Part shown: in pieces, positions 38,872 through 61,140 of the stretch
Position numbering within the stretch: the first letter of the stretch is position 1
Layout of the letters: every line of letters starts with the position of its first letter
DNA from: an uncultured Candidatus Saccharibacteria bacterium
GTDB lineage: Bacteria > Patescibacteriota > Minisyncoccia > UBA6257
Assembly (NCBI GenBank): GCA_964479005.1
Contig: CAYZJA010000001.1
Span: forward strand, 96,001-160,000
Length of the DNA stretch: 64,000 nt
Direction: 5' to 3'
Made by a program: the position numbers and the translations under genes
Notes under the pieces: generated by a model
What the model was told of the DNA's origin: nothing
Database searches by the model: none
The model's input: only the letters and a program-made list of their open reading frames with translations

Positions 38872-38984
38872 TTATCCACAATGGGACTTGACAAGATTTA
38901 AATGTTTGCTATACTACGGATGCTGTCGTTTGGAAGTATTTGTTAGCTTGCTAATGGATATGGAAGAGTGGCAGCATTTTTTTA
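38872..38984 (+). ncRNA. candidate small RNA module, copy 1: TTATCCACA box, promoter TTGACA-16-TATACT (38888-38915), ~60-nt hairpin transcript ending in an intrinsic terminator
   Basis: No ORF; stem ATGCTG...CAGCAT then T7; a paralogous module sits in inverted orientation at 61018-61140. Confidence 0.45.
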
Positions 38985-39065
38985 TACTTACATAATAACA
39001 AAAGATACGAAGAATTGTCCTTCATATTTTTGATTGACTTTATTAATAAGACGTGATATAGTAAA

Positions 39066-39091
39066 AATGCTCTTAATTGAGCATTTTTTTG
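39066..39091 (+). terminator. intrinsic terminator hairpin in the 5' region upstream of the EPS module
   Basis: aatgctc-ttaatt-gagcatt then ttttttt. Confidence 0.5.
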
Positions 39092-39212
39092 TACTTTGAC
39101 ATTTAAAATATATAGCCGTAACAGGGAAAATTCTTTGTTATTGGAGATAAAAGATAGATTATTAAATGATTTGATTAGTAAAAAATAAATTTAAATAAAG
39201 GAGGAAAGAAAG

Positions 39213-39926
39213 ATGAAAAGGAAGTTAGTTATAGTTTTTGTTTTGTTTATTTTAGTGCTGAGTTTTACTCCAATTTTGAAACACTGGTCTTCAGAATGGG
39301 AATTGAATGCCCCAGTGTTATTGGATAGCGTTCAATTATCGAATGATTGCCGTATATTGTTGGGATCGTATTATTCAAGCGGGGTGATTTATCAGGATAA
39401 TTCTTTTGAATTTATTACTCATTCATCTGATGTGTTTTCTGATGTAAATGGTTTTAGGCCCTATCCTTGGGGAGGAGAAGTGTTTTCAGGAGAAATATCT
39501 TTTTTATGTTCCCTTGATAATTATACAGGATTCAGATCATTTATGATCCAGGGGAAACAGAAAGATGATCATGGCGCCATTGCTGTTCCTGGTTTACTGT
39601 CAAAACCAAATGTAGAATCAGGAGAATTATATTATCTATCGTTTTGGGTGAAATATGATATTCAAGAAGGAGGATTTAGGCTTACACAACAATTCTTTCG
39701 TAAGCAAGACAGCGAATATCCTCATTATGCTTGCTATGGTTCTTTGATTAAAGGTAATAGTAATAAACGCTGGGAGTATGTAGGTTTAATTGTTCAGGCA
39801 CCAATTGATGCTTGGAAAGGAGATCCAGTATTAGAATTGAAAGGCAAGGGATTTGTTTTAGTTGATGATGTTTATTTCGGAAAGATAGAAATAATAAAGG
39901 AGGTGAATAAAGGTGAGATTCTTTAG
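39213..39926 (+). CDS. secreted/membrane-anchored hypothetical protein, first gene of the EPS module
   Basis: Strong SD aaggagg; signal anchor; beta-rich composition. Confidence 0.4.
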   Translation: MKRKLVIVFVLFILVLSFTPILKHWSSEWELNAPVLLDSVQLSNDCRILLGSYYSSGVIYQDNSFEFITHSSDVFSDVNGFRPYPWGGEVFSGEISFLCSLDNYTGFRSFMIQGKQKDDHGAIAVPGLLSKPNVESGELYYLSFWVKYDIQEGGFRLTQQFFRKQDSEYPHYACYGSLIKGNSNKRWEYVGLIVQAPIDAWKGDPVLELKGKGFVLVDDVYFGKIEIIKEVNKGEIL

Positions 39927-41196
39927 AAAATTAGGTATTTTTTCTTTTGAGGATTTTGTCTATGCCGGTTCTACTTTTGTGCTCGCGATGTATGTCATTT
40001 GTATTCTTGTAATTACTCTTTTCCAAATAACAGGGCAATCAGTAATTTTTAGCAGCCGTTTTTCACTCTGTTCTTTGGACATTCAATTTCCTTTTTTCTT
40101 AATTATTTGCATCATCCTGATGTATTTGAGTATGTTTATCTGGATTTTTATGGGATTTGCAGGTATATTTTATAGAAAAAAGGTAGATTTGAAGCAAGAA
40201 GATGATTCTACTCTAATATCAGTTCTTATCCCTGCGCATAATGAAGAAGATGTTATAGAAGGTATTTTGGGAGATTTAGTAGCGCAAGAATATAAGAACT
40301 TAGAGATTATCGTATTAGCTCATAATTGTACTGATTCCACAATATCCAGAGCGCAATCAGTAGATGATTCAAGGATTCAAATATTGGATATAAGAACTCG
40401 TAAGTCAGGAAAAGCATTAGCCCTTAACAGAGGATTAGAAGAAGTAAAAGGAGAAATTATTGCTCTATTTGATACTGACAACAGGATAAAAGATAAAAAA
40501 TTCTTTAATCGAGCAATAGTATATTTCAGAGACGAAACCATTGATGCTATCCAAACCGAACTTGCTACAAGTAACAGATCTGCTTCTTTGTTGACTTTTC
40601 TTCAGGAAGTAGAATATGATACTTTCTCTTCAATATCCTGGCGTGGTAGGGATGTTCTAGGTCTTCCTTGTTTTTTAGCAGGAACAGGTATTTTTATCCG
40701 AACAAAAACCTTAAGAGAGATGGGTGGATGGAAAAATTCCTTGGTGGAAGATTTTGAACTTTTTACTAGATTGACTTTGGAAAAGAAGAAGATAGTTTTT
40801 GCTGATAATCTTGTTGTTTATGATGAAAAACCGCCATCTTGGAGTGGAATAATGAAACAAAGATCACGTTGGATAAAAGGTCATTTGAAGGTTACTTGGG
40901 ATAATCTAGATAAGTTTGGAAATTGGTTGGACTATATTTATCGCTTGACTCCTTTAGCTGTTTTTGCATGGTGGGCATCAAATTTCCTATACTGGTTTTA
41001 CTATCTAACTGGCCAAATTTCTATTTTTAATGTAACAGGATGGATTTGGTTAAGTTGGACTTTTGCCTTCTTTGCTCTTCCTACTTATAATAGTATAAAA
41101 AAACGCAGTTGGAAAGGGGTTTTATTTTTGCCTGTTTATTGGTTCTTTGTTTTTCACTTGCTGTGGGCAAGTTTATACAGTTTAGGAGTGAAATGA
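39913..41196 (+). CDS. processive family-2 glycosyltransferase (polysaccharide synthase; cellulose/chitin/PNAG-synthase-like) with flanking TM helices
   Basis: GT-A fold motifs LISVLIPAHNEE and DTD (LFDTDNR), processivity motif QRSRW, multiple C-terminal TM helices. Confidence 0.8.
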   Translation: MRFFRKLGIFSFEDFVYAGSTFVLAMYVICILVITLFQITGQSVIFSSRFSLCSLDIQFPFFLIICIILMYLSMFIWIFMGFAGIFYRKKVDLKQEDDSTLISVLIPAHNEEDVIEGILGDLVAQEYKNLEIIVLAHNCTDSTISRAQSVDDSRIQILDIRTRKSGKALALNRGLEEVKGEIIALFDTDNRIKDKKFFNRAIVYFRDETIDAIQTELATSNRSASLLTFLQEVEYDTFSSISWRGRDVLGLPCFLAGTGIFIRTKTLREMGGWKNSLVEDFELFTRLTLEKKKIVFADNLVVYDEKPPSWSGIMKQRSRWIKGHLKVTWDNLDKFGNWLDYIYRLTPLAVFAWWASNFLYWFYYLTGQISIFNVTGWIWLSWTFAFFALPTYNSIKKRSWKGVLFLPVYWFFVFHLLWASLYSLGVK

Positions 41197-42353
41197 AACT
41201 TAGTAGGGAAATTGTAATAACGATTATAATTTTAATCTTTTTATTGGTATCTTTATCCGAATTTGGAGCAACTTTTTATTCTTCTATATCTCAAAAGCAG
41301 AAAAGTAGTAATTATATTTACGATGAGAAAATTATAGTTATAGATGAGAAAGTTATAGAAGATGAAAGACAGGAGATAGAGAATATTCAAATCAGTTTTA
41401 GAGGAATAGATTTCTATCCTGATCCTTATCCTTATTCTACTTCAGAAGCTTTTGATGCCTTAGAACAGCTCCTTAATTTTCAGGGAATGAATTATGTCCA
41501 ATTACGTTTTTTCCTAACTCAAGATTCTCTTACTTCCAACAAAGTGGTTTATGATGAAAAACAAGATATTACTCTAGAAAGCATGATTGTTATGATTCAT
41601 CAAGCAGGAAAGAGAGTATCATTACTGCCTGATATTATCATTAAAACAGGGGATTATGTAGCTAGTCTTAGTCCTGAAGATATTGAACAATGGTTTGCTT
41701 CTTATTATGATGCTTTAATGCACTATGCTATTTTGGCGCAGACATATGATGTAGAATTATACTGTATCGGTAATGAGCTTCATTCTTTATGGATAGAGGA
41801 TCAAAAATGGAGATACATTATTGATAAACTGAGAGAGCAATACAAAGGTTTAGTCACTACTAAACTTAACTGTTGGTGGCAGGAAAAAACATTCCAAAAA
41901 GTATTAACTTATGGTTGGCTGGAAAAACTTGATTATATTGCCATTGCTCCATATTTTGATCTAACGTGGGAAAATGATCTTTCTTTAGAAGAAATAAAGA
42001 GCAGCTGGCAGAATAGTCGTCATGGACTTAATATAGTAGCAGAATTGGAAGAAATCGCTAAAAAATATAAAAAAAAGATGATTTTTTCAGAGATTGGTTA
42101 TAGAAGCATTGATGGAACTACTATTGAACCTTGGAATAGTGATTCTATAGTACCTCGTTCAGGAGGAAGTGGTAAGATTGATTTAGAAGAACAATCCTTA
42201 GCTACTCAAGCTTTATTTGATGTTTTCAAAGATAAAGATTGGTGGGGAGGAGTATTCTGGTTCTATTGGCCGACTGTTAAACCAAATGAACAAGATAAAA
42301 CATGGGCTATATGGAATAAACCAGTACAGCTGGTTATTCAAAATAATTTTTGA
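41193..42353 (+). CDS. membrane-anchored clan GH-A-like glycoside hydrolase (TIM barrel; GH5/GH113-like)
   Basis: ATGA overlap with the GT2 gene; candidate catalytic pair IGNE ... FSEIG about 140 aa apart. Confidence 0.45.
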   Translation: MKLSREIVITIIILIFLLVSLSEFGATFYSSISQKQKSSNYIYDEKIIVIDEKVIEDERQEIENIQISFRGIDFYPDPYPYSTSEAFDALEQLLNFQGMNYVQLRFFLTQDSLTSNKVVYDEKQDITLESMIVMIHQAGKRVSLLPDIIIKTGDYVASLSPEDIEQWFASYYDALMHYAILAQTYDVELYCIGNELHSLWIEDQKWRYIIDKLREQYKGLVTTKLNCWWQEKTFQKVLTYGWLEKLDYIAIAPYFDLTWENDLSLEEIKSSWQNSRHGLNIVAELEEIAKKYKKKMIFSEIGYRSIDGTTIEPWNSDSIVPRSGGSGKIDLEEQSLATQALFDVFKDKDWWGGVFWFYWPTVKPNEQDKTWAIWNKPVQLVIQNNF

Positions 42354-42355
42354 AA

Positions 42356-42390
42356 CAAAGGGGAAGATTAATCTTCCCCTTTTATTTTTT
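42356..42390 (+). terminator. rho-independent terminator
   Basis: aaaggggaaga-ttaa-tcttcccctttt then T-run. Confidence 0.65.
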
Positions 42391-42486
42391 ATAAATATAA
42401 AATATTTTTATCATTTAATTTATAAAGCCAATGAAAGAGTTGGCAAATCATTATTAATATCATATTTTACTTAATTAAGAGTGGAC

Positions 42487-42680
42487 TTGACAAGAAAAAA
42501 AAAGTTTGCTATTGTGTTTTCACGGTGGGGCTTTTATTTTAGCCCCGCAGTGGGGCTTATGAATAATATTCAAAAAAGGGGATTTCATAATTTAAACAAA
42601 ATTTCTTTTCGATTTCTTGCGTTTAGTAAAATTGAAAAAGAAGTTTTTTGAGGTTGGCGTTTTTGCGCCAACTTTTTAAT
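42487..42680 (+). ncRNA. candidate promoter-to-terminator non-coding unit (~160 nt): promoter TTGACA-17-TATTGT at 42487-42515, terminator 42653-42680
   Basis: Same gGACTTGACAAG...GTTTGCTAT promoter architecture as the sRNA modules; hairpin GGGGCT...AGCCCC; only a weak 29-aa ORF inside. Confidence 0.3.
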
Positions 42681-42735
42681 ATTAAAATTAATAAAAAAAA
42701 TAAATAAAAAAATAAAAATTAATAAAATAAAAAAA

Positions 42736-44023: not shown

Positions 44024-45772
44024 ATGAATAAACAATTATTCTCTAAAACGATTTCACTTTTCTTAGTTTTTTCTTTGGTGTTCGTAGGTGTTTCAATATT
44101 TTCACCAAATAATATTGAAGCTAAAGGACAGAAACCAAATAACAAAATATCAATTTGTCATAGAACTAGTTCTGCTACTAATCCTTGGAATGTAATTAAT
44201 GTTAGTGTTAATGCTCAAGATGCTCACTTAGCTCATGGAGATTTTCTTTATGAAGGTAGTTATCCAGTGAATTCTAAAGAAGCAGAGGAATGGTGTGGCA
44301 TGACTAGATATACTTGTAATGAAAGTACTTGGCAATGTGTAATTGATAACCAAGGTCAATATTCAAGTTATGATGATTGTTCAACTGTTTGTCAGGAACC
44401 AATGGCAACTGTAACAATTTGTAAATATGACGAAGAAAGGAATCCTTTAAGTGGATGGAAAATGATTTTGAAAGGGGATTTGCAAGACCAAGTAACTGTT
44501 TTTCCTGATGGGTCAGCATATTTGTCAGGAGATTTACCATTAGAAGATTATTTATTAATGGCTTCTGGTCAATATGTTTATAGGCCTGGAACTTTAGGGG
44601 CTGAATATTCTGATGCTGGCTATACTAAGAGGAATTGTCCAGGAGATGCTACTTATTTATGTAGTGGTCCCTATACCCCATGGTTTAATGTTTTTGATAT
44701 TATAGGTATTCATAAAGGATGGTTGGGGATTATGGTTAATGACGCCGCAACTAATTGGGGTTCTTACTTTAACTCTGCTCATACTTATGCTCTGGGATAT
44801 CCTAATTATAGTGGTTCATTATCTTTTACAATTAAAGATGATGTGTATAGTGATAATTCAGGACAATTAAATGTTGATATTTATAAAGGATATACTGGGG
44901 AGACAGATGAAAATGGTTGTATAACCTTTAATGATGTTCCTTTGGAAACTTATTCTCTTGAGGAAATTCTTAAAGATGGATGGCAAAATGTTAGTGGTTT
45001 AGGACAGATTGTTATTGATGAATCTCAAGAAACTTTTGATGTGATTAATAGTGAAATTAAAAGCGAAAAAGAACTAGCATGCATAAATTCAGGTGGCACA
45101 GTTGGAACAGGTATATGCTGCAAAAGTGTAGAAGGTTTTCCAAATGATTGTGCTACAGGAGCCTGCGGTTGTTCTGCAGGAGATAGCCATGAAGTTCAGG
45201 TTTGTAATTGTCCAGCAGGCAAATGTTTTGATGGAAATTCCTGCGTAACAAAATGTGAAGAAGGAATTAATCTTCTTAAAAACGGTAGTTTCGAATATCC
45301 GGAAGTAACTAATACAAGCAAATGGCAGTTATTTCCATCAGGGACAGCTCTACTTGAATGGGTAGTTGGATGGGTTAGCGCTGCTCCATCAGACCCTCCA
45401 ACAATTGAAATACAGAAAGGCGTAGTAGTTTCTCCTAGTAATGGACTTCAAAGCATTGAATTAGATTCAGAAGCTCCAACCTATATTTCTCAAGCAGTTA
45501 ATACAGAATCTGGCTATGGATATAAATTAAGCTTTGATTTTGCAGCCAGGCCTAATACTTCAGAAGAAGATAATAAATTAGAGGTTTGGGCTGATAGTAT
45601 TCTTAAAGATAGTATTAGCAGCAATACATCTTGGCAAACAAAAACATATAATTTTAATGCTACTTCTAACCTTACGGAAATCAAATTCGTGGATATAGGA
45701 ATTCCTAATACCGATTCAATGGGTACATTATTAGATAATGTTAAATTAGAATGTGTTCCGCCGGTTCTGTAA
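44024..45772 (+). CDS. secreted multidomain protein, shorter paralogue of the 1440-aa giant: Cys-knot module, ~210-aa prealbumin/CnaB-like tandem domain, C-terminal jelly-roll-like domain
   Basis: Signal peptide MNKQLFSKTISLFL...; the TVTICKYDEER...ETFDVIN block is >60% identical to 1440-aa residues ~810-1020; C-terminal NGSFEYPEVT...LDNVKLECVP matches NGDFESPEVT...LDNVSVRCVP. Confidence 0.5.
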   Translation: MNKQLFSKTISLFLVFSLVFVGVSIFSPNNIEAKGQKPNNKISICHRTSSATNPWNVINVSVNAQDAHLAHGDFLYEGSYPVNSKEAEEWCGMTRYTCNESTWQCVIDNQGQYSSYDDCSTVCQEPMATVTICKYDEERNPLSGWKMILKGDLQDQVTVFPDGSAYLSGDLPLEDYLLMASGQYVYRPGTLGAEYSDAGYTKRNCPGDATYLCSGPYTPWFNVFDIIGIHKGWLGIMVNDAATNWGSYFNSAHTYALGYPNYSGSLSFTIKDDVYSDNSGQLNVDIYKGYTGETDENGCITFNDVPLETYSLEEILKDGWQNVSGLGQIVIDESQETFDVINSEIKSEKELACINSGGTVGTGICCKSVEGFPNDCATGACGCSAGDSHEVQVCNCPAGKCFDGNSCVTKCEEGINLLKNGSFEYPEVTNTSKWQLFPSGTALLEWVVGWVSAAPSDPPTIEIQKGVVVSPSNGLQSIELDSEAPTYISQAVNTESGYGYKLSFDFAARPNTSEEDNKLEVWADSILKDSISSNTSWQTKTYNFNATSNLTEIKFVDIGIPNTDSMGTLLDNVKLECVPPVL

Positions 45773-45878: not shown

Positions 45879-48800
45879 ATGAAAAAACAATTTTTCTCTA
45901 AAACATTTTCAATTTTCTTGGCACTTTCTTTTGTACTTTCTAATAGCGCAATGTTAGTGCCATTACAAGCTGAAGCTTGTGAGGAAGAAATATGCGAAGA
46001 CGTTATTGTGGTAAGTAATATAGAAGATAAGGTTTTTGATATTGCAGAAACTCTTCCCGGTGAAGCAGCTGTTCTTGCTTGGGATGATCATCCGGCATGG
46101 ACAGCGTATATTGAAGGCGCAAATTGGATTTGGAAGACAGAATATGTAGAAAATCCTGATCAAGACGAAACATATATATTTAAAAAAGATTTTGATATTG
46201 TTGGCATTCCAGATTCTGCAACATTAAAAGTTGCAACTGATAATTCGTATAGTGTTTGGGTTAACAATGTTTTGATTGGAGAAGTTATAACTGAAGATAA
46301 TCACAGTTCAACAACCCAAGATCAATATAATAATATCGTTGACTTTCATACCGGTTCAAATGAAATTAAATTTGAAGTTAAAAACTGGGCAGGAAATGCG
46401 TCACCGAAATTAAATCCTGCAGGTCTTTTGTATAGACTTGAGATTGTAAGATCTTCTTGTGAACCTCAATGTATACCTCAATCTTCTATAGAAACAGACT
46501 GTACTAATGGTTTAGATGATGACTGCGATGGTTTTATTGATAGTGAAGATTCTGATTGTCAGATGTTAATAATGGCTTCTAAAGTAATTTGTGATAATGA
46601 ATCAGATTTACCTAATTGGGGGACAGGATCTGGAGTTGACTATCCTTCATATAACATTGATCAAAACACAGCTTCGGATTATGTAGCTGAACATTCTGGT
46701 TGTTATTTAGCTTCTAATTGGTTTTTTCAATGGGGACAACAAGGTTCTGATGATTTTGGAAAAGACTTTTATGGAGAAGCTGGCAATGGCTACACTACTT
46801 TTGGGCCAACAAATGAAAATGGAGTAGCTAGTACAACAGTGGATTCTGTTACCGGTAGTTATTTGGAATTAAGGGAAGTTCTGCAGCAAGGTTATATTCC
46901 TTTTACGTATGACCAATCACATAAATCTAATGATAATAATATTTCTGCAGAATTTTATTGCCACAATGATATTCTCAATTATGATAACTGGGATTATATA
47001 AAAAATCCTCAATTAGGAATTACTCATTATTGCGTTGGATTTAATGCATTAATCGAACAAGAAGAACCAGAACCTGTTTGTGGAAATGAAATTATAGAAA
47101 CTGGTGAACAATGTGATCCACCTTCAACCACTGCTCCTAATTCTACTGATGAATATTTCTGTGACCAAAATTGTAATTTAGTTCCTATCTATCATTCTCT
47201 GGATGGTTGTCCAAAAAATCAAATCCTAGAATTTATTCAGTCTTATCAAATTCATTCAACTAGTACGACAGAAGTTATTATTCCTGTGAGTGGTAGCGAT
47301 ACATATAAGTTTGAAGTTAAAGGAACTTTTTATCCTACTCAAAATGGAAAAAATGAGAATTTCCTATCAGATGCCGCCTATACGACTGAAGATGGCTGGG
47401 TTTCAACTTCTACAAAATACGGAATTAAAGGCATACCACCTGATTATGCTGCCCATGCTTTATTAGGTGATTTAGGATTAGGGGCTGGAGTAATTAATTG
47501 GGGAGATTATGATTCTTCTCATGAATATGATTTCTCTTACACAATTCCTTCAGGCGCTACTTCTACTCAATTTGTGATAGGTGATAGATGGGATAATTGG
47601 TTTATACCAGATGATATTAGTTGGAATAATCAAGGCGGAATGAAAGATAATCTTGGAAATTTGACTTTAGATGTTTATGAGTGTAAGCCAATCCAAGCTA
47701 GATGTGATCCTAAGTTAGAATTAGTTATGAATGGCGATTTTGAGAGTCCTGAAGTGACTGATCTAGTAAAAAAATGGGGTATTTTTCCATCAGGGACAAC
47801 CGATTTAGAATGGTTAATTAATTGGAGAGAAATTTGGCCTTCAGCACCAAAAATAGCAAATCTTGAAATTCAGAAAAGTTATTATACTCCAGTAATAGCT
47901 CCTGTAGTTCCTGGAGATCCAGATCAATATGCTGAGTTAGATACTGATTGGCATGGTCCAGGTGGACCTTCTGGTGAACCAGCCTCAGTAGCTATTTCTC
48001 AAGATATTCCAACAATTATAGGGGAAACTTATAGATTAAGTTTTGATTTTTCACCACGACCATATACTGATTTAGAACAGAATCATTTAAAGGGTTTTGT
48101 TGATAGCGCTGAATTATTTGATATTTCTGCTGATGGTTCTGGTTTAACAGATACTTTATGGAATCAATATTCTGATAATTTTGTTGCTACAAGTTCAATA
48201 ACAAACATTAAATTTACTGATTATGGTACACCAGACTCTTTAGGCACTTTCTTAGATAATGTTAGCGTAAGATGTGTTCCTCAGGACGAACCTACTATGT
48301 ATCATTGTAATGAGGAATGGCAATGTATAGCAGATCCTGAAGGTGAATATAATACTGATAATTGTGACAATCAATGTATTAAACCTGGAACATCCACAGT
48401 TACTATTTGTAAATATAATGAACAAGAAGAACCTTTAAGAGGTTGGAAGATGATACTTAAAGGTGATAGGTATGATACAGTGCCTGTTTTTCCAGATGGG
48501 CAAAATTATTCTTCAAATCCTTTGCTATTAGGTGATTACTTAATTCAGGCTTCTGGTCAATATTTATATAGACCAGGAACACCTGGCGCTGAGTATTCTG
48601 ATGCTGGCTATACTAAGAGGAATTGTCCAGGAGATGCTGATTATTTATGCAGTGGAGATTATACCCCATGGTTTAATGTTTTTGATATTATAGGTATTCA
48701 TCAAGGATGGTTGGGGATTATGGTTAATGATAATCTTACTGATTGGGGGTATTTTACTTCTGACCATACTTATACTCTTGGCTATCCTGGTTATAGTGGT

Positions 48801-50201
48801 TCGTTCACTTTTACTATAAAGGATGATGTATATTCAGATAATAGTGGATCATTAACAGTTAAAATCTATAAAGGCTATGTAGGGGAAACTGGAGAAAAAG
48901 GATGTGTTACATTTAATGGTGTTCCTTATGGCGAGTATATAGTTGATGAAGATCTTCAAAGTGGTTGGATAAATCAAGATGGTTTAGGAAATGTTACAGT
49001 AGATGACCTAGAAGAAACATTTGATGTTGTCAATATTCCACCAGAAGGACAGATAGGTTCTTTAACTGTTTGTAAATATAGAGATCACGAACCATTTGGG
49101 GAATACAATACAGGTATTGATACACCTCTAACTTGGGAGATGAGAATTATTGGACCTAATAGTTATGATCAATTGTACGAAACTGATCCTCAGAATGGAT
49201 GCAAAACAATAAATAATTTAGAATATGGCCAATATGTAGTTTCTGAAGAATTGAAGATTGGTTGGGATCAAACTTATCCTCTTGATCCTAATACCCATAC
49301 CATTGATATAAATGGCGGTAATTCTAATCCATCAGTATATTTCTTGAATTATAAAACAATTGATAATGGTGGAACAAAATATGCTTGTAATGCAGAAGGG
49401 CAATGTATAGAAAATGAAGGGGGTAATTATACCACTTCTAATTGTGATGAAGAATGTAGACCATATCCATATACTTGTAATTCATCTACCTCAGAATGTG
49501 TACGTGATGTTCATGGCCAATTTGGTTTATTGCAAGGTTGTGAGGATGCTTGTAGGGTATCTACTCCATTAGGAGGTCAATATGCAATATTGGGAACAGT
49601 TTTGGGTGCTGCTACTGAAAAGGAAGAAGAACCTTGCGGTCTTTATCTTTTGGAATACATAAAGCTTGGAGGTGATAATAATCCTGAGGAAGTGAAGAAA
49701 TTACAATATTTCTTAAATGAATATCTTGGCATTAATTTAGAGATAACAGGAGTTTATAATCAAGCTACTTATCAAGAAGTTATGAGATTCCAGCTTCTTT
49801 TGAACGATGAAATTTTGGCTCCTTGGGTTGAAGTTAATTGTCTTCCATCTAGTAATATAGCTACTGGTTATGTTTATCGAACAACACAATGGAAAATAAA
49901 TATGATTGTTTGTCCAGAATTGAACCTTCCAGTACCGAATTTATATGATGAAACTTGTAAATATATTAGTCTATATCCAGGAGAAGGTGTAGTTGCTGGA
50001 GCAGCTACTTCTACAGTGGGTGGAACTAATGGAACTACCACAACTACCTCAACTACAACTCCTGAAACAATAGGAGATACTACAACAACTGTTCCTCAAG
50101 ATACTGGGGATGAGCAGTCACAAAATTGGATTTGGGTTTTGATTGGACTTTTAGTGATTGGCGGCGCAGCTTATTTGGTTTATCAAACTAGACAAGTATA
50201 A
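45879..50201 (+). CDS. giant (1440 aa) cell-surface protein: signal peptide, Cys-rich Myxococcus-type repeats (CGNEIIETGEQCD), a metal-binding-like CTNGLDDDCDGFIDSEDSDC, two prealbumin/CnaB-like blocks, a jelly-roll-like domain, a PG_binding_1-like domain, a Thr-rich linker and a C-terminal TM anchor
   Basis: Motifs read directly; C-terminus ...TTTTSTTTPETIGDTTTT...NWIWVLIGLLVIGGAAYLVYQTRQV. Confidence 0.55.
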   Translation: MKKQFFSKTFSIFLALSFVLSNSAMLVPLQAEACEEEICEDVIVVSNIEDKVFDIAETLPGEAAVLAWDDHPAWTAYIEGANWIWKTEYVENPDQDETYIFKKDFDIVGIPDSATLKVATDNSYSVWVNNVLIGEVITEDNHSSTTQDQYNNIVDFHTGSNEIKFEVKNWAGNASPKLNPAGLLYRLEIVRSSCEPQCIPQSSIETDCTNGLDDDCDGFIDSEDSDCQMLIMASKVICDNESDLPNWGTGSGVDYPSYNIDQNTASDYVAEHSGCYLASNWFFQWGQQGSDDFGKDFYGEAGNGYTTFGPTNENGVASTTVDSVTGSYLELREVLQQGYIPFTYDQSHKSNDNNISAEFYCHNDILNYDNWDYIKNPQLGITHYCVGFNALIEQEEPEPVCGNEIIETGEQCDPPSTTAPNSTDEYFCDQNCNLVPIYHSLDGCPKNQILEFIQSYQIHSTSTTEVIIPVSGSDTYKFEVKGTFYPTQNGKNENFLSDAAYTTEDGWVSTSTKYGIKGIPPDYAAHALLGDLGLGAGVINWGDYDSSHEYDFSYTIPSGATSTQFVIGDRWDNWFIPDDISWNNQGGMKDNLGNLTLDVYECKPIQARCDPKLELVMNGDFESPEVTDLVKKWGIFPSGTTDLEWLINWREIWPSAPKIANLEIQKSYYTPVIAPVVPGDPDQYAELDTDWHGPGGPSGEPASVAISQDIPTIIGETYRLSFDFSPRPYTDLEQNHLKGFVDSAELFDISADGSGLTDTLWNQYSDNFVATSSITNIKFTDYGTPDSLGTFLDNVSVRCVPQDEPTMYHCNEEWQCIADPEGEYNTDNCDNQCIKPGTSTVTICKYNEQEEPLRGWKMILKGDRYDTVPVFPDGQNYSSNPLLLGDYLIQASGQYLYRPGTPGAEYSDAGYTKRNCPGDADYLCSGDYTPWFNVFDIIGIHQGWLGIMVNDNLTDWGYFTSDHTYTLGYPGYSGSFTFTIKDDVYSDNSGSLTVKIYKGYVGETGEKGCVTFNGVPYGEYIVDEDLQSGWINQDGLGNVTVDDLEETFDVVNIPPEGQIGSLTVCKYRDHEPFGEYNTGIDTPLTWEMRIIGPNSYDQLYETDPQNGCKTINNLEYGQYVVSEELKIGWDQTYPLDPNTHTIDINGGNSNPSVYFLNYKTIDNGGTKYACNAEGQCIENEGGNYTTSNCDEECRPYPYTCNSSTSECVRDVHGQFGLLQGCEDACRVSTPLGGQYAILGTVLGAATEKEEEPCGLYLLEYIKLGGDNNPEEVKKLQYFLNEYLGINLEITGVYNQATYQEVMRFQLLLNDEILAPWVEVNCLPSSNIATGYVYRTTQWKINMIVCPELNLPVPNLYDETCKYISLYPGEGVVAGAATSTVGGTNGTTTTTSTTTPETIGDTTTTVPQDTGDEQSQNWIWVLIGLLVIGGAAYLVYQTRQV

Positions 50202-54163: not shown

Positions 54164-54185
54164 AAGAATTGAATTAGAAATAAAA

Positions 54186-54222
54186 CAGGACTGATAACAA
54201 TATTAGCCCTGTTTTGTTTTAC
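54186..54222 (+). repeat. dispersed ~30-bp palindromic repeat, copy 1 (aaaacaggactgataacaatat...cctgtttt)
   Basis: Copies at 55197-55231 and 56610-56640 are in reverse orientation; core aaaacaggactgataacaatat matches exactly. Confidence 0.7.
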
Positions 54223-54329
54223 GATAATTGACTATTGACTCTTGGCCTATAATCTGTTATCATTTTAGAGCAATTAAAGAAGATTATTTTATAGCATTTT
54301 GAAAATTTTATAAAAAGAGGTGAAATATA

Positions 54330-54578
54330 GTGGATAAGAAAGAAAAGATAGATGTATTGGTTTTATGTTGTATGATGATAGTTTTTGTTACTTTGTCGAA
54401 ATTGACGTATAATTTTTGCATGTCTAAAGGAGTAGAATATATATCAAAATATATCGCTGCTTCTTTAACACCTTTAGAATCCATATTAGCTTTAGTTTGC
54501 TGGATTATTTTTTCTTGTCTTATGTTTCTTCTGACGCTTTACTTGTTTTGTCTTTGGAAAGATGATTTTTGCGAATGA
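54330..54578 (+). CDS. small 2-TM membrane protein (GTG start)
   Basis: SD aaagaggtg; hydrophobic 82-aa ORF. Confidence 0.3.
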   Translation: MDKKEKIDVLVLCCMMIVFVTLSKLTYNFCMSKGVEYISKYIAASLTPLESILALVCWIIFSCLMFLLTLYLFCLWKDDFCE

Positions 54579-54606
54579 TGAAAATTATATTAAGGAGGTA
54601 ATTAAT

Positions 54607-54849
54607 ATGTCAAGGGAATTAACAAATCTCGAGATAAGAGCATTGAATTTCAAAGTAGGAGAAAAAGTCAAGGAGTTTTTAGTGTGCGCGGTATGCAAAG
54701 GCAATCCCGGTATAGAATATGGGAATATTGACAATGTCAAATTTTGCGGTGATAAAGATTTTGCTAAAGAAAAAAAGAAGAAATTAAAAAAGAAATTTTC
54801 TAAAGATAATGTAAGCATTTTAGAAATTCAAGTTAGAAAAATAGAATAA
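54607..54849 (+). CDS. small Cys-containing protein (80 aa) with a Lys-rich tail
   Basis: Strong SD taaggaggtaattaatATG; CAVCKGNPG...FCGD. Confidence 0.35.
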   Translation: MSRELTNLEIRALNFKVGEKVKEFLVCAVCKGNPGIEYGNIDNVKFCGDKDFAKEKKKKLKKKFSKDNVSILEIQVRKIE

Positions 54850-54882
54850 TAAAATTAATTAATAAAAAAGGAGGTAATTATA

Positions 54883-55083
54883 ATGATACATATTTTAGAC
54901 ACTGAAGAAACACCTAATATTGGAAACCAAGTGTTTGCAAACTGCGGAGAGAAATTAGATTTTCGTCCTATATGCGCAGATATTTATGGCCGAAAAACTT
55001 GTCCCGAGTGTTTGAAAAAACATGATTTATTATCAAAATCGAAAACACCATCAATGTACATGTTTATACTAGAAGAAAAGTAA
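54883..55083 (+). CDS. small zinc-ribbon-like protein (66 aa)
   Basis: Near-identical SD context aaaaggaggtaattataATG; NCGEK...CPEC. Confidence 0.35.
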   Translation: MIHILDTEETPNIGNQVFANCGEKLDFRPICADIYGRKTCPECLKKHDLLSKSKTPSMYMFILEEK

Positions 55084-55196
55084 ATTTAAATTGGTGTGAG
55101 AGCCCTCTTAAAGGTACGTAAAACTATCTTAAGGGGGTTTTTATTTTGATATAGCTAAGTTGCTAAAGTTAATTTATTGTAATGATTTATTTAGAG

Positions 55197-55231
55197 CTGA
55201 TATATTGTTATCAGTCCTGTTTTGTTTTATA
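55197..55231 (-). repeat. dispersed ~30-bp palindromic repeat, copy 2 (reverse orientation)
   Basis: gagctgatatattgttatcagtcctgttttgtttt. Confidence 0.7.
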
Positions 55232-55253
55232 ATTTGTATTAAGTTTATTAAAT

Positions 55254-56606: not shown

Positions 56607-56609
56607 AAA

Positions 56610-56640: not shown

Positions 56641-56681
56641 TAATATAATAATAGCCAGAGATTTCCAATTCTATTAGGTTC

Positions 56682-56709: not shown

Positions 56710-56738
56710 TGGATATAGCTAATATAGCCAATAATCAT

Positions 56739-57800: not shown

Positions 57801-57830
57801 TAATTTAATAAAAGTGATAAATCTAAAAGT

Positions 57831-58847
57831 ATGAGTTTATCAATTGGAATTGTCGGTTTACCTAATGTGGGAAAATCCACTCTTTTTAAACTTTTAACAA
57901 AGCAGGAAGTTAATATTGCTAATTATCCATTTACTACCATTGATCCTAATGTGGCTGTTGTTTCAGTGGCTGATGAGAGATTAGAAAAAATAGCTGAGAT
58001 AAGCAAACCGGAAAAAGTAATTCCTGCCGCAATTGAATTTTTTGATATTGCAGGGTTAGTAAAAGGAGCTAATAAGGGAGAAGGGTTAGGAAATCAATTT
58101 TTAGCCCAGATTCGCGAAACCAATGCTATAGTACAAGTAGTTCGATGTTTTTCTGAAGAAACAGTAGCTCATATAGATGGCAGTATAGATCCTTTAAGAG
58201 ATATTAAAGTAGTTAATACCGAGTTAATCTTAAAAGATTTAGAAACTACAGAAAAGAGAATTAGTAAAATAGAAGGGGAAGCTCATGCTGGAAATAAAGA
58301 CATTGTTAAAGAATTAGAAATATTAAATCAGATAAAAAATTTACTAACAGAAGACAATCTTTTGATAAATTTTTTGAACGAAGAGTTATTAAATAATCCA
58401 GCAGTGAAAGATTTAAATTTTTTAACGGCAAAAAAACAAATCTACTTGTTTAATGGCAGAGACGAGGATACTCCAAAAGAAGTTATTAATTTTATTCAGC
58501 AATTAAAAAGTGAATATATTATTACTGGTTTAGAAACAAATCCTGATTTATTAGAGCTTATTAAAAAAGCCTATCAGGTTTTGGGGCTTATTAGCTTTTT
58601 TACTATTGTAGGTGAAAAAGAGGCGCGCGCTTGGCCTGTAAAAAAAGGTATTAAAGCTCAGGAAGCGGCAGGGATGATTCACAGTGATTTTGCCGATAAA
58701 TTTATTAAAGCTGAAGTTATTGATTGGAAGAAATTATTAGAAGCAGGCAAGTGGAGTGTTGCCCGCCAAAAAGGATGGATTCAATTAGAAGGAAAAGAGT
58801 ATGAGGTACAGGATGGAGATGTTATAATATTTAAACACGGGGGATGA
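57831..58847 (+). CDS. ychF: ribosome-binding ATPase YchF (Obg family)
   Basis: IGIVGLPNVGKSTLF; NYPFTTIDPN; C-terminal TGS-like. Confidence 0.9.
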   Translation: MSLSIGIVGLPNVGKSTLFKLLTKQEVNIANYPFTTIDPNVAVVSVADERLEKIAEISKPEKVIPAAIEFFDIAGLVKGANKGEGLGNQFLAQIRETNAIVQVVRCFSEETVAHIDGSIDPLRDIKVVNTELILKDLETTEKRISKIEGEAHAGNKDIVKELEILNQIKNLLTEDNLLINFLNEELLNNPAVKDLNFLTAKKQIYLFNGRDEDTPKEVINFIQQLKSEYIITGLETNPDLLELIKKAYQVLGLISFFTIVGEKEARAWPVKKGIKAQEAAGMIHSDFADKFIKAEVIDWKKLLEAGKWSVARQKGWIQLEGKEYEVQDGDVIIFKHGG

Positions 58848-59104
58848 AAAAGAAATTTATATTTTATGGTCGGGTCCAAGGTATAGGGTTTCGTTTTAGA
58901 GCCGAAATGTTAGCTAAAAAATTTAATATATTTGGTTGGGTGGAGAATAATGATGATGGAGGTGTTACTTTAATAGCAGAAGGGGCAGAAGAAAACATAG
59001 AAAGTTTAATAAATAATTTAAAAGATTATTTTCAAGATAATATTGAAAATATAAAAGAAAGTATAGAAAAAGGCGAGGGGTTAATTGATTTCAAAATAAA
59101 ATGA
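58844..59104 (+). CDS. acyP: acylphosphatase-like protein
   Basis: YGRVQGIGFRFRAEMLAKK...GWVENNDDG. Confidence 0.7.
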   Translation: MKKKFIFYGRVQGIGFRFRAEMLAKKFNIFGWVENNDDGGVTLIAEGAEENIESLINNLKDYFQDNIENIKESIEKGEGLIDFKIK

Positions 59105-59451
59105 GTTTTATTAAGCATAAAGAGAGTAAAGAAAGCTTATTTGTTTGGACTAAGCATTCGCAAGCAAAGATGCGTCAATATATGCTTTCTGAAAGTAGAG
59201 TAAAGCGGGTGATAAGAAATCCTAAAAGAGTGGAAGAGGGTATTGCTCCAAAGACTTTAGCTTCAATGCAAAAGGCGGGTTCTAAAAAGCATCCTTATGA
59301 GATTTGGGTAATGTATCAACTTGTTAGTGAGCGAGGCCGTAGAATAAAAGTTATTAGCGCGTGGAAATATCCTGGTACTACTCATCCCGGAGATCCAATT
59401 CCTATTCCACCAGATATTTTTGAGGAAATTATTAAAGACCTTGGAACATAA
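59101..59451 (+). CDS. hypothetical protein
   Basis: 116-aa ORF translationally coupled to acyP; no recognised motif. Confidence 0.35.
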   Translation: MSFIKHKESKESLFVWTKHSQAKMRQYMLSESRVKRVIRNPKRVEEGIAPKTLASMQKAGSKKHPYEIWVMYQLVSERGRRIKVISAWKYPGTTHPGDPIPIPPDIFEEIIKDLGT

Positions 59452-59453
59452 AT

Positions 59454-60164
59454 ATGGAGAAAGAAAAGTTTGAAGATTTAATAAGCCAGTCCTTAAAAAA
59501 ACTTCCTTATCGGTTCTTAAATAAATTAAAAAATATCGCTATTATAGCGCAAGATAAGCCAAGTGAATTCCAGAGACAACAATTAGGTTATTCTTCCGGC
59601 GGCTCTATTTTGGGCTTGTATGAAGGAGTTCCTCAAATTAAAAGGGGATACTATTATAGAGCAGCGCCAGACAAAATAACTTTATTTCAAAAAAACATTG
59701 AAAGAGCGGCAGGTAATAATGAAGAAAGAATTAAGGAAATTGTGCAAGGAACAGTTTGGCACGAAATAGCTCATCATTTTGGAATGAATGAAGAGGAGAT
59801 TCAAAAGCGAGTTCAAGACAATAAACCATTTTCTCGAAAAAATATGATTACTTTTGACCAATTTGAACAATTAGATTTACGCGTAGCTAAAATTTTAAAA
59901 GCGGAAAAAATAGAAGAAGCAGACGAGCTTCTTATTTTGCATATTGACTTGGGTGCAGAAAAAAGGCAATTAGTTGCCGGTATTGCTAAGGATTATTCTT
60001 TAGAGGAATTAGAGGGCAAAAAAATTATTATTGTGGCTAATTTAGAGCCAAAAAAAATAAAGGGTTATATAAGTCAGGGCATGCTTTTAGCAGTTGATTC
60101 TCCGCAAGGGCCCGTTTTATTAGTTCCAGAAGGTGAAGTATCACCTGGTAGTAAAGTAAGATAA
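59454..60164 (+). CDS. fusion of a zincin-like putative metallopeptidase (DUF1025-like, HExxH) and a C-terminal tRNA-binding OB-fold domain (CsaA/Trbp111/EMAP-like)
   Basis: VWHEIAHHFG; C-terminal LDLRVAKILKAEKIEEADELLILHIDLG...VANLEPKKIKGYISQGMLLAV. Confidence 0.5.
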   Translation: MEKEKFEDLISQSLKKLPYRFLNKLKNIAIIAQDKPSEFQRQQLGYSSGGSILGLYEGVPQIKRGYYYRAAPDKITLFQKNIERAAGNNEERIKEIVQGTVWHEIAHHFGMNEEEIQKRVQDNKPFSRKNMITFDQFEQLDLRVAKILKAEKIEEADELLILHIDLGAEKRQLVAGIAKDYSLEELEGKKIIIVANLEPKKIKGYISQGMLLAVDSPQGPVLLVPEGEVSPGSKVR

Positions 60165-60168
60165 AAAT

Positions 60169-61017
60169 ATGAAAAAACTATATGTTATCAACAGTTTAGG
60201 TATGAAGGAGCCTTTTTCATGGAGAAAGATTTGTAATGGCGCTGAACGAGTTGGCGCTTCAAAAGCATTAGCAAAAGAAATTGCCACTATTATTGAAAGA
60301 GAAGCATATCCTGGAATAACCACAAAAGAGATTTTTCAACGAGTGGAACAAATTTTATCAAAAGAGTGTCCTCGCGGCAGAATTCGTTTTAGATTAAAAG
60401 AAGCAATGAGACGTTTAGGCCCCAGTGGTTTTCCATTTGAAAAATATGTTGGAGGGATTTTAATGCAATTAGGTTTTTCCATTGAACTTAATCGATATGT
60501 TAAAGGGCAATGTGTTCGTCACGAAATTGATTTTTTAGCCAAAGAGGAAAAATATTTTTTAATTGGAGAATGTAAATATCATAGTTTGCCAGGGGGAAGG
60601 GTGGATTTAAAAGTTGGTTTGATTCATTGTGCCCGTTTTTTAGATTTGAAATCAGGTGATTTTTTTGGAAAGATTAAATCAGAAAAACTAAAAATACGAC
60701 CGATTATTGTCACCAATACTAAATTTACAAGCAAAATAATTAAATATGCTGAGTGTGCTGGCATAGATTTATTAGGATGGAAATATCCAGAGCTGAGAGG
60801 ATTAGAGTATGTGATTGAATCAGAAAGATTTTACCCAATTACTATTCTTCCGTCTTTAACTAATAATTTATTAGAAATATTTTATCAGCAAAAATTAATG
60901 TTGGTTCAGGATTTATTAAAGTTAGATGTAATAAAATTTTCAAAAAAGACAAGAATTCCAGAAAAAAAGATATCTGCCATTAAAAGGGAGGCAGAGATAT
61001 TGTTATTAGAAGAGTAG
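60169..61017 (+). CDS. ATP-cone domain fused to an Mrr-like (PD-(D/E)xK) restriction-endonuclease domain
   Basis: N-terminal LYVINSLGMKEPFSWRKI...EIFQRVEQIL (ATP-cone pattern); C-terminal FEKYVGGILMQLGF...HEIDFLA...GECKYH. Confidence 0.45.
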   Translation: MKKLYVINSLGMKEPFSWRKICNGAERVGASKALAKEIATIIEREAYPGITTKEIFQRVEQILSKECPRGRIRFRLKEAMRRLGPSGFPFEKYVGGILMQLGFSIELNRYVKGQCVRHEIDFLAKEEKYFLIGECKYHSLPGGRVDLKVGLIHCARFLDLKSGDFFGKIKSEKLKIRPIIVTNTKFTSKIIKYAECAGIDLLGWKYPELRGLEYVIESERFYPITILPSLTNNLLEIFYQQKLMLVQDLLKLDVIKFSKKTRIPEKKISAIKREAEILLLEE

Positions 61018-61140
61018 TAAAAAAATGCTACTGCCCTTTGAAACTAAATAGCAAGCTATTCAATCTCTCTAGACAGTAGCATTGGTAGTATAGCAAACAT
61101 TTAAGTCTTGTCAAGTCCCATTGTGGATAACTTAAAATTA
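61018..61140 (-). ncRNA. candidate small RNA module, copy 2 (minus strand): TTATCCACA box 61132-61140, -35 TTGACA 61119-61124, -10 TATACT 61097-61102, ~65-nt hairpin RNA ending in a terminator at ~61018-61033
   Basis: 48/49-nt identity of the promoter region with copy 1; stem ATGCTACTG...CAGTAGCAT then T8. Confidence 0.45.

Follow-up and report, generated by a model that had tools for sequence, protein, structure and literature searches.

The two convergent sequence modules found in the window (the whole 64,000-nt stretch of DNA analysed here) are, with a probability that we put at roughly 60%, paralogous genes of one small-RNA family of Patescibacteria, with the hairpin as the functional unit. 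A paralogous sRNA pair was one of two options raised in the initial annotation, and it is supported by the existence of a multi-copy family, by covariation, and by the organization of each module as a self-contained promoter-hairpin-terminator unit.

Two modules in the window

A repeat search showed that the longest inverted repeat of the window consists of arms at 38869-38984 (plus strand, copy A) and 61133-61018 (minus strand, copy B), which span 116 nt and are 78% complementary. Both arms share a near-identical core of 49 nt (38869-38917 and 61133-61085), and a 25-mer from this core occurred exactly twice in the window versus 0 expected from 100 shuffles. The repeat search and a re-reading of the sequence bore out the 49-nt repeat with one mismatch that had been described initially (T38897 versus C61105), while the outer end then given for the minus-strand arm, 61140, is 7 nt too far, because the core ends at 61133. 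In each arm, a 13-nt box containing a perfect DnaA-box 9-mer is followed by a near-consensus sigma-70 promoter, a hairpin of ~58 nt and a U-run (Table 1). In agreement with the initial annotation, the DnaA-box-like 9-mer and the TTGACA-16 nt-TATACT promoter were confirmed by sequence in both copies, and the modules point toward each other. The box of copy B lies 9 nt from the ATG (61140) of a divergent PPDK/PEP-synthase gene.

Table 1. Positions of the module elements and associated features in the window.
Feature	Position	Strand	Basis or remark
Intrinsic terminator of 66-aa membrane-protein gene, AAAAAGACCTG...CAGGTCTTTTT	38821..38857	+	Sequence; weak hairpin match
Upstream box, copy A, AAGTTATCCACAA	38869..38881	+	Sequence
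DnaA-box 9-mer, copy A, TTATCCACA, perfect	38872-38880	+	Ends 7 nt before -35 hexamer
Promoter, copy A, TTGACA-16 nt-TATACT, TG (extended -10)	38888..38915	+	Score 11/12
sRNA, copy A (predicted)	38916..38983	+	Leader, hairpin, U-run; fold and covariance model R1
Second, weaker terminator-like hairpin and T-run, 3' of copy A	39004..39032	+	Sequence
Mini-module, promoter TTGACT-17-TATAGT then AAAAAUGCUC-UUAAUU-GAGCAUUUUUUU	39034..39095	+	Covariance-model match, 17.6 bits
Class-I family promoter remnant after GH113 gene, GGACTTGACAAGA...GTTTGCTATTGT	42483..42515	+	Sequence
Second terminator, AUAUCUCUGCC...GGCAGAUAUCU and U7	60962..61000	-	Sequence
sRNA, copy B (predicted)	61019..61086	-	Leader, hairpin, U-run; fold and covariance model R1
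Promoter, copy B, TTGACA-16 nt-TATACT, TG (extended -10)	61087..61114	-	Score 11/12
Upstream box, copy B, AAGTTATCCACAA, including TTATCCACA at 61130-61122	61121..61133	-	Sequence

The ~60-nt hairpin and U-run previously proposed for each copy were also recovered: both hairpins fold well, and seven U follow each. In copy A, a purine leader (38916-38919) precedes the hairpin (38920-38977), whose basal and upper stems are separated by a GGAA/GGAA internal loop and capped by a G(CUUG)C tetraloop; the U-run follows at 38977-38983, and transcription would start at about 38919-38922. Copy B has a leader (61086-61083), a hairpin (61082-61025) with an AGA/AAA internal loop and the same tetraloop, and a U-run (61025-61019); 1-2 nt separate its end from the stop codon of the ATP-cone gene (60169-61017), which is convergent. 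The folds reached -23.1 kcal/mol (z -4.8) for copy A and -30.3 kcal/mol (z -5.5) for copy B, with covariance model R1 scores of 70.5 bits (E 2.5e-18) and 83.7 bits (E 2.8e-22), respectively. The reverse complements of both hairpins were no better than shuffles (z about 0 to -0.3). This strand specificity of the structure is what G-U pairing in an RNA would lead one to expect.

We considered it very improbable that the hairpins are ordinary terminators with incidental promoter-like sequence, or that they encode a leaderless micro-peptide (AUG...UAG, 8 codons). A U-run does follow each hairpin, but the gene upstream of copy A has its own terminator, which is also present in L061, so the module A hairpin is not the terminator of that 66-aa gene; the gene at copy B lies on the opposite strand; and the promoter is retained in members found independently of it. 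The initial annotation's alternative that these terminators simply belong to the upstream genes thus fails. Most hairpins start with AUG, GUG or UUG, and the long forms have UAG in the apical stem, yet the putative ORF lacks a ribosome-binding site, lies buried within the paired stem and is down to 4 codons in the short forms, and some members have ACG or GCG as its 'start'.

A probable small-RNA family of Patescibacteria

Further members were sought by a metagenome pattern scan and by protein-anchored look-ups at ATP-cone homologues. The scan returned at least 120 loci with at least 64 distinct RNA sequences, and with short forms and protein-anchored members included we counted at least 90 distinct modules in at least 120 contigs of Patescibacteria. 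Because the pattern that yielded most members required the promoter hexamers and the TAGCTTGCTA loop, the conservation of both is inflated in the scan sample; ~20 members are independent of the loop requirement, and no DNA pattern was used to find L122, L124, L126, L128 and L140, which lie at the syntenic site beside ATP-cone homologues, where they and L001 represent orthologues of copy B. Among the matches listed, a genome carries 2-5 genes, and the RNAs occur in long (58-60 nt) and short (44-50 nt) forms and as two or four hairpins per transcript. The search for further copies in relatives that had been proposed at the outset thus revealed a family conserved in many of them, and not confined to the two window sites. 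Rfam gave no match at gathering score or E<=10, and a literature search found no published description of this RNA family. It represents a widespread, so far uncatalogued family of predicted RNAs in tiny-genome Patescibacteria (CPR; NCBI phylum Minisyncoccota), and the carrier clade is defined at phylum level only, since the public records label carriers inconsistently as Saccharibacteria, Paceibacterota, Pacebacteria or Minisyncoccia.

The compensatory changes first noticed between the two window hairpins recur both among ~60 distinct members of the long form and in an extended set. In the alignment of 59 distinct sequences (A1), 94.9% of cells were paired, compared with 32-66% in slid controls, and 14 of the 23 pairs had changed on both sides; none of 500 shuffles reached the observed pairing percentage or covariation score, and one reached the observed count of pairs changed on both sides. 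The extended set, in which new short forms and protein-anchored members make up about half of the 20 distinct sequences, was 97% paired, with compensatory changes at 15/23 pairs. Family members conserve the basal stem (5' (A)UGCU, 3' AGCA(U)), U-G wobble pairs, a small symmetric purine-rich internal loop (AGA/AAA, GGAA/GGAA) and an extra-stable tetraloop, while the upper stem varies in length. The tetraloop is CUUG, with UUCG or GNRA instead in distant members (UUCG in L126, GAAA/GCAA in L137). In L126 the first hairpin, and in L137 the first three, have the same architecture, with the next hairpin following directly and no U-run between. Judged by these sequence comparisons, the hairpin is more than a terminator.

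The upstream box was found 6-8 nt from the -35 hexamer in 22 of the 90 distinct modules and with 1-2 mismatches in six more (28/90), leaving 62/90 box-less (class II). It is retained despite a diverged promoter spacer in L059, L075, L109, L124, L126 and L140, and doubled in L137. Class-I promoters, including both window copies, may be gated by DnaA or another box-binding factor. No origin-like GC-skew switch was seen within the window.

Genomic setting of the two sites

Copy A, preceded by L7/L12, tRNA-Val and the 66-aa gene, borders a variable island. Copy B lies opposite the ATP-cone gene's 3' end, in antisense orientation; this site is deeply conserved and is occupied between that gene and PPDK even in relatives with as little as 54-59% protein identity. 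A back-up terminator like that after copy A stands downstream of many family members in relatives, and the one that belongs to copy B, which runs antisense inside the ATP-cone ORF's 3' end, is kept at the B-type loci of ~20 relatives. Operons downstream of family members have their own promoters. Of the family stem, the mini-module beyond copy A, conserved in L016, retains the base alone (AUGCU/AGCAU); it is probably a tandem copy with an internal deletion. Where the window has the promoter remnant behind the GH113 gene, L078 has a full module.

The initial annotation's second option, that the copies bound a mobile or invertible segment of 22 kb as its terminal inverted repeats, is hardly credible. 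The pair is inverted, its best-conserved part lies at the outer ends and the content in between varies among relatives, but the two sites lie anywhere from 3.4 to 22 kb apart (3.4 kb in L061, ~3.9 kb in L108, ~5.8 kb in L104, 10 kb in Ga0315289_10000075 and Ga0315285_10000017) and are convergent in every relative with both copies. A check of related strains for absence or inversion of the block had been proposed at the outset; the island can be missing, as in L061, where the site-A copy persists, and both sites stay. Five core syntenic genes adjoin copy B, no recombinase or transposase domain was detected in the ORFs scanned, members in other contigs are single, tandem, or 70 kb apart on one strand, and the G-U pairing reveals selection at the RNA level. 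Because of the variable spacing, the constant convergence and the five core genes inside, the paralogous sRNA pair holds and the segment-end reading fails. The 22-kb interval is thus shown to be no unit, consisting of a variable island (~39.2-57.8 kb, after tRNA-Val and site A) plus the five core genes. Its description as an accessory block is only partly right, since 57.8-61.0 kb carries core genes syntenic in relatives (YchF, acylphosphatase, tRNA-binding protein, ATP-cone gene). The stretch at 42.7-50.2 kb called GC-richer does differ in that direction, but modestly (0.34-0.36 versus 0.30-0.33).

A selfish or neutral dispersed repeat of the Correia, BOX or RUP kind, bearing a promoter and a terminator and spreading and recombining with no cellular function of its own, is also a rather unlikely reading of the modules. 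Several copies per genome, local amplification in tandem (L128 with four copies in 3 kb, L020 and L103 with two each), assemblies that break within the module (L007/L011), the two remnants in the window, and swapped hairpin types (window copy A is an L078:2025-type hairpin in L078:5648-site flanks) would agree with such an element. However, the module edges show neither terminal inverted repeats nor target-site duplication, the copy number is low, site B is occupied across deep divergence (neighbouring protein 54-96% identity), and purifying and compensatory selection clearly acts on both the sequence and the structure of the RNA.

Somewhat less unlikely, though still doubtful, is action in cis, in which strong self-terminating units would insulate or interfere with neighbouring transcription and the RNA would be a by-product; at site B, transcription reading through from the YchF...ATP-cone operon into PPDK would meet collision or antisense pairing, and the divergent PPDK promoter would face competition. 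Copy B occupies the entire 122-nt gap between two plus-strand genes, where the hairpin on the ATP-cone strand is weak and lacks a U-run, making read-through likely; being antisense to that likely transcript and divergent from PPDK, copy B may have a role in cis at this site. CTTGACAAG is nearly palindromic and yields TTGTCA on the other strand, and the box lies close to the PPDK start codon. Relatives down to 54% protein identity preserve the convergence with the ATP-cone 3' end, even where PolX lies between module and PPDK, and the two tandem terminators suggest strong transcription to be contained. Yet most members, copy A, L128 and L020 among them, either run in the same direction as their neighbours or are isolated, with nothing to disturb, the hairpin sequence is conserved across sites and lineages beyond the needs of termination, and the non-terminal hairpins of two- and four-hairpin transcripts share the same design.

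Proposed mode of action and comparison with known systems

As a small-RNA gene, each module would be a self-contained transcription unit of box, sigma-70 promoter with extended -10, hairpin and U-run. Transcription would start 5-7 nt after the -10 hexamer and release a 5'-triphosphate hairpin of ~60-65 nt with a short U tail, start site and product both being predicted from sequence. Almost every base is paired and no conserved single-stranded seed was found among family members; from this, and from dosage via gene copies or tandem hairpins, a structured protein ligand (decoy, sponge or RNP component) appears the most likely role, rather than a base-pairing regulator. We arrived at this mechanism by elimination; as a best guess, the RNA would be a hairpin that binds protein, acts in a dosage-dependent manner and is controlled through the DnaA box.

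TIGR stem-loop arrays of TIGR-Tas systems have been reported in CPR bacteria, with units that carry box C/D motifs and two spacers in loops, beside a Nop-domain Tas gene (PMC12045711). The family likewise occurs in CPR genomes and has tandem hairpin units per transcript in some lineages, but its tetraloops leave no room for spacers, and no Tas-like neighbour was present among the genes examined around its members. Neisseria Correia elements and pneumococcal BOX and RUP elements are short intergenic repeats whose RNA folds into hairpins, which can have promoter and terminator activity and which mark sites of rearrangement. The family units resemble them in these traits, but differ in lacking terminal inverted repeats and target duplications, in having few copies and in the deep conservation of one site.

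Sibling sRNA genes are known as Vibrio Qrr1-5, the streptococcal CiaR-dependent csRNAs and Listeria LhrC1-5, RNAs that act by base pairing through exposed, conserved single-stranded seeds. The family resembles them in having several short paralogues per genome, placed in unrelated intergenic sites, each with its own promoter and upstream box, its own intrinsic terminator and no ORF; unlike them, its members are nearly fully paired single hairpins, and there is no sequence similarity or shared Rfam match. RNAs of the CsrB/RsmY/RsmZ type sequester proteins on repeat hairpins. Membership in this type cannot be claimed for the family, whose loops are stable tetraloops without GGA motifs, but the short hairpin unit, the dose set by repeats (two in L126, four in L137) or gene copies, and the predicted strong regulated promoter are alike. 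DnaA-regulated promoters include those of dnaA, nrdAB and mioC in E. coli and sda and ywlC in B. subtilis. Although the product here would be a small hairpin RNA, neither a protein nor an origin-proximal transcript, and DnaA binding is a prediction, the family shares with these promoters a 9/9 consensus box near the -35 hexamer, at a fixed distance and duplicated in one lineage.

Two inverted putative small-RNA modules and their predicted transcription signals

The initial annotation had described a promoter, a hairpin RNA and a U-run terminator at two sites of the window, and we found all of these elements at both copy A (plus strand) and copy B (minus strand), as laid out in the table. A repeat search returned the two 116-nt arms, 78% complementary to each other, as the longest inverted repeat of the window. 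The outer 49 nt differ between the copies by a single base, and a 25-mer taken from this near-identical segment occurs in the window only at these two places, against a chance expectation of 0. The hairpins fold with energies of -23.1 (A) and -30.3 kcal/mol (B), corresponding to z-scores of -4.8 and -5.5, while their reverse complements fold no better than shuffled sequence, from which we infer that the structure relies on G-U pairs and has been selected on this strand at the RNA level.

Coordinates of the RNA modules and of other elements discussed in the text
Feature	Location	Coordinates	Description
Inverted-repeat arms	window, copies A and B	38869-38984 / 61018-61133	116 nt
Outer segment	window, copies A and B	38869-38917 / 61133-61085	49 nt
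Upstream box	both copies	38872-38880 (A), 61130-61122 (B)	AAGTTATCCACAA; includes TTATCCACA at these positions
Promoter	both copies		TTGACA-16 nt-TATACT, TG ahead of -10; starts 7 nt after box
Leader	both copies		4-5 nt, purine-rich
Hairpin	both copies		58 nt, imperfect
U-run	both copies		seven U after hairpin
Terminator of 66-aa gene	window	38821-38857	upstream of copy A
Mini-hairpin	window	39063-39088	covariance-model match
Promoter remnant	window	42483-42515	family promoter
Tandem form	L126	10863-11040	one box, one promoter, two hairpins
Tandem form	L137, Minisyncoccia MAG GCA_049969555.1	1686-1925	two head-to-tail boxes (AGTTATCCACAAGTTATCCACA), one promoter, four consecutive hairpins, GNRA loops
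Interrupted tRNA-Gly(CCC) gene	window	31130-31338	interrupted in anticodon loop
Inserted element	window	31168-31299	132 nt
tRNA-Gly(CCC) within element	window	31192-31264	intact
Terminal repeat of element	L087, L094, L121	~2992, ~2413, ~1208 respectively	adjoins RNA module
Terminal repeat of element	L041		downstream of RNA
Terminator-plus-promoter element	window	54178-54225, 55190-55235	~45 nt, two direct copies
Small-ORF cassette	window	54330-55083	~1 kb
Tandem units	window	12041-12168	four units of ~31 nt
Inverted copies of tandem unit	window	15109-15145, 8643-8692	near-perfect
Alternative hairpins	window	42516-42565	downstream of promoter remnant
RNase P RNA (class A)	window (-)	25164-25584	
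Paralogous surface-protein segments	window	44408-44942 vs 48396-48927; 48300-48378 vs 49380-49458	
GlmS homologue	L124	16062-19214	downstream of PPDK

An in-silico test placed a sigma-70-type promoter directly upstream of both copies, and by the same approach the promoter is also kept in members reached through protein synteny (L124, L126, L128, L137 and L140). The suggestion that the terminators merely belong to the upstream genes did not hold, as a separate terminator serves the 66-aa gene that precedes copy A and both genes flanking copy B lie on the strand opposite to the RNA. A second terminator stands 3′ of many family members, both window copies included, and the operons downstream of modules have their own promoters. 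We ruled out the sequence ACGGAGGA downstream as a ribosome-binding site, which would have made the RNA a leader or attenuator, since it forms one arm of the second terminator hairpin. On sequence evidence, each copy has what would be expected of an independent non-coding small-RNA gene, namely a promoter, a covarying structure and a Rho-independent terminator that no neighbor needs.

A covarying hairpin family in Patescibacteria

A scan for the box plus -35 through a genome collection that did not include the source genome identified a single other species, a MAG labelled Saccharibacteria (L001), which carries an orthologous B site with a compensatory change from C-G to U-A in the basal stem. 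With a -35/-10/loop pattern, metagenomes yielded at least 120 loci and at least 64 distinct RNA sequences, about three quarters of the matches listed being true members with hairpin and U-run. Members are thus present in many relatives. The carriers could be placed at phylum level only (Minisyncoccota/Patescibacteria), and two patterns gave only chance matches in viral contigs, none of which was confirmed by a covariance model.

This model was built from an alignment of 59 distinct sequences, in which 94.9% of cells were paired, compared with 32-66% in slid-register controls, and both sides had changed in 14 of 23 pairs; in 500 shuffles the observed pairing and covariation score were never reached, and the number of pairs altered on both sides was reached once. 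Applied to the window, the model found two full copies only, plus a mini-hairpin, and at related loci it picked up shorter versions, 44-50 nt long, that are preceded by the same promoter. To avoid pattern bias, contigs were also fetched via homologues of the ATP-cone protein that neighbors copy B, and the RNA was present at the same place beside these homologues in L122 (83% protein identity), L124 (64%), L126 and L128 (both 59%) and L140 (54%). Extending the analysis to short forms and protein-anchored members, in a set of 20 distinct sequences, gave 97% pairing and 15/23 compensatory pairs. The compensatory pattern first noticed between the two copies holds in both sets, with slid and shuffled controls far lower.

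Nothing relevant reached the gathering score in Rfam 15 at either window site or at six relatives' loci, and matches at E<=10 were noise, such as miRNA and snoRNA hairpins or CopA (16.7 bits versus a gathering score of 60). A literature search found no description of this RNA family. Elsewhere in the window, RNase P RNA scored 110 bits where the gathering score is 100, a low score that fits a divergent CPR lineage. Of the origins initially considered for the two copies, that of a paralogous sRNA pair is supported by the promoter, covarying hairpin and terminator at both, and we conclude that the finding is real and that the two are a paralogous pair of predicted small-RNA genes from a new, widespread CPR family.

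Members share a common design. The stem base opens with (A)UGCU and closes with AGCA(U), a conserved U-G wobble follows a G-C pair in the stem, the internal loop is symmetric and purine-rich (GGAA/GGAA in A, AGA/AAA in B), and the upper stem ranges from 3 to 12 bp. The hairpin of most members is capped by the extra-stable tetraloop G(CUUG)C, which the metagenome pattern itself required but which is also present in short forms that the model detected. It is swapped for C(UUCG)G in L126 and for GAAA/GCAA in L137, indicating that the loop is kept for stability rather than sequence. These two loci carry tandem forms, whose folds have z-scores of -8.9 and -9.2, respectively. A plain terminator would explain the hairpin and its U-run, but the non-terminal hairpins of the tandem forms keep the same design without a U-run, which argues that the hairpin is selected for more than termination; the plain-terminator reading fits the data poorly, as does a micro-ORF, which we rejected on its defining features.

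Perfect TTATCCACA, which is identical to the consensus DnaA box, lies 6-8 nt upstream of -35 in 22 of 90 distinct modules, and with one or two mismatches in 6 more; both window copies match the consensus at 9/9 positions. The other class, with spacer AAATTATTTTTCTTTGC and no box, accounts for 62/90. The box persists despite a diverged spacer at L059, L075, L109, L124, L126 and L140, and is doubled head to tail in L137. A third exact TTATCCACA in the window, at 32804, is intragenic, and GC skew is uniformly positive over the window, with no origin-like switch that would mark an origin of replication.

The interval between the copies and neighboring elements

Pfam annotation of the 22-kb interval between the copies gave, in order, an unannotated 237-aa gene, GT2, GH113, large surface proteins, a solute symporter and Fic, then YchF, acylphosphatase, a weak DUF4258 match, a zincin/tRNA-binding protein and the ATP-cone/AF1548-like protein, with PPDK immediately outside. 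The order from YchF to the ATP-cone gene, RNA, PPDK and enolase is syntenic across relatives. L7/L12, tRNA-Val and the 66-aa gene precede site A both in the window and in the relatives L061, L108, L078 and L029. In L061 YchF comes directly after the site, leaving 3.4 kb between the two RNA genes; the symporter follows in L108 and L104 and an Hsp20-like gene in L029, and the window has the GT2/GH113 operon there, as do L016 and L078. The proposed accessory block thus stands only in part: the stretch downstream of tRNA-Val and site A, ~39.2-57.8 kb, is a variable island, whereas the five genes beside B, and B itself, belong to the core.

The inverted copies had also been read as the ends of an invertible or mobile segment. 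However, both sites stay occupied and convergent in every case while the distance between them varies from 3.4 to 22 kb (10 kb in two long contigs), and the block is neither inverted nor absent as a unit in these relatives; the sites stay and the intervening content varies. Pfam scans of 20 ORFs over 38.6-63.5 kb found no recombinase or transposase (four ORFs had no match at all), and no target-site duplication is common to the outer flanks (...cataa|AGTTATCC at A; ...aatttta|AGTTATCC at B) or to the inner flanks. Transposon ends therefore fit the data poorly, and the interval as a transposon or invertible element is a false lead that can now be removed; a selfish repeat likewise fits poorly. 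The modules do coincide with points of rearrangement. After GH113, L078 has a complete module at the place where only a promoter remnant is left in the window, copy A of the window has the hairpin type of one relative within the flanks of another site, and L128 has four modules spaced between cassettes. We read this as recombination between repeated genes rather than a dedicated mobility function; on a more speculative reading, the conserved modules might serve as homology anchors for accessory-cassette swaps by natural transformation at the tRNA-Val island. The family accounts for some of the assembly breaks and rearrangement points in Patescibacteria genomes.

Several other elements were observed. 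A tRNA-Gly(CCC) gene in the window is interrupted by a 132-nt element that is bounded by 19-nt terminal inverted repeats (CCCCCACACCAAACGAGTA / TACTCGTTGTGGTGTGGGGG), shows a 4-nt duplication (CAAG) and contains an intact tRNA-Gly(CCC) of its own; in-silico removal of 31168-31303 regained a perfect tRNA-Gly(CCC). The insert resembles a miniature mobile element bringing a replacement for the gene it disrupts. Its terminal repeat (CCCCCACACCA[A/T]AACGA, complement GGTGTGGGGG) adjoins RNA modules in relatives, either straight after the U-run or directly before -35 (L016, L051, L084, L092), there replacing the DnaA-like box, and this element family seems to insert beside RNA modules. Copies of a ~45-nt terminator-plus-promoter element (AAAACAGGRCTGATAACAATAT..CCCTGTTTTGTTTTATAAT) flank a cassette of small ORFs, which occur at other places in L001 and L104; in L061 and L104 one such element follows the site-A RNA and serves as the next operon's promoter. 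An inverted repeat at 54178-54203 / 55202-55227 was considered as an insertion-split hairpin, but these are direct copies, each with an internal palindrome. The ~31-nt tandem units, TCTTATTATGAGC[C]AAAG[G]C[G/A]AATAACAAGGT, have inverted copies 3 kb to either side. The stretch that precedes the first surface-protein gene can fold into either of two G+C-rich hairpins, GGGGCUUUUAUUUUAGCCCC or GCCCCGCAGUGGGGC, but not both at once, and may be a leader or attenuator. The 582-aa and 1440-aa surface proteins have paralogous segments in common (72-78% identity), and cysteine-rich repeat units recur within the latter, which together point to a cluster that is probably recombining. Downstream of PPDK in L124, the GlmS homologue contains an intein that includes a LAGLIDADG endonuclease domain (1050 aa, versus 590 aa in L122).

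Possible function and comparison with known RNAs

Transcription would start 5-7 nt after the -10 and the RNA would be released at the U-run; its synthesis may be under the control of DnaA or some other box-binding factor. The product could act as a structured protein ligand, whether decoy, sponge or RNP part, a role favored by the lack of a single-stranded seed, by copies that amplify dose, and by the conservation of helical sequence, wobble pairs and purine loop. At site B a role in cis is possible, either as antisense to read-through into PPDK or by competition with the divergent promoter, but this leaves the other copies without explanation. A type I toxin-antitoxin antisense RNA with 3′ overlap was rejected, since the gene convergent with B encodes a 282-aa ATP-cone/AF1548-like protein and belongs to a conserved operon; copies other than B have no convergent ORF. 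We consider it unlikely as yet, at a probability of about one in five, that the hairpin serves as the repeating unit of a novel CPR-specific class of RNA that titrates a protein or forms an RNP, with its dose set by gene copies and tandem hairpins and its synthesis coupled to replication status by DnaA boxes. If true, the RNA would link the cell cycle to a target such as RNase III, the neighboring tRNA-binding/zincin protein or the ATP-cone nuclease. An RRM-domain protein near the L137 array was dismissed as a partner, with no homologue in the window or the related loci examined.

Patescibacteria make up a large part of bacterial diversity and have genomes of ~1 Mb. To our knowledge, CPR genomes miss most known regulators, and almost no regulatory RNAs have been characterized in Patescibacteria. 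A conserved multi-copy RNA outside Rfam, with covariation, a consensus promoter and a DnaA-box-like operator, offers a concrete entry to their regulation.

Among known systems, TIGR-Tas arrays are recognized by box C/D motifs, by dual spacers within the loop and by a Tas gene with a Nop domain next to the array (PMC12045711). We rejected such a stem-loop array, as the loops here are 4-nt tetraloops and there is no Nop-domain neighbor in the window or related loci. Integron attC sites were likewise rejected, GTTRRRY boxes and an integrase being absent. SRP (4.5S) RNA has a GNRA-capped domain IV with conserved loops, and 6S RNA a large central bubble; neither RF00169 nor RF00013 was matched even at E<=10, and the RNA described here is a hairpin of 44-60 nt with a 3x3 or 4x4 purine loop.
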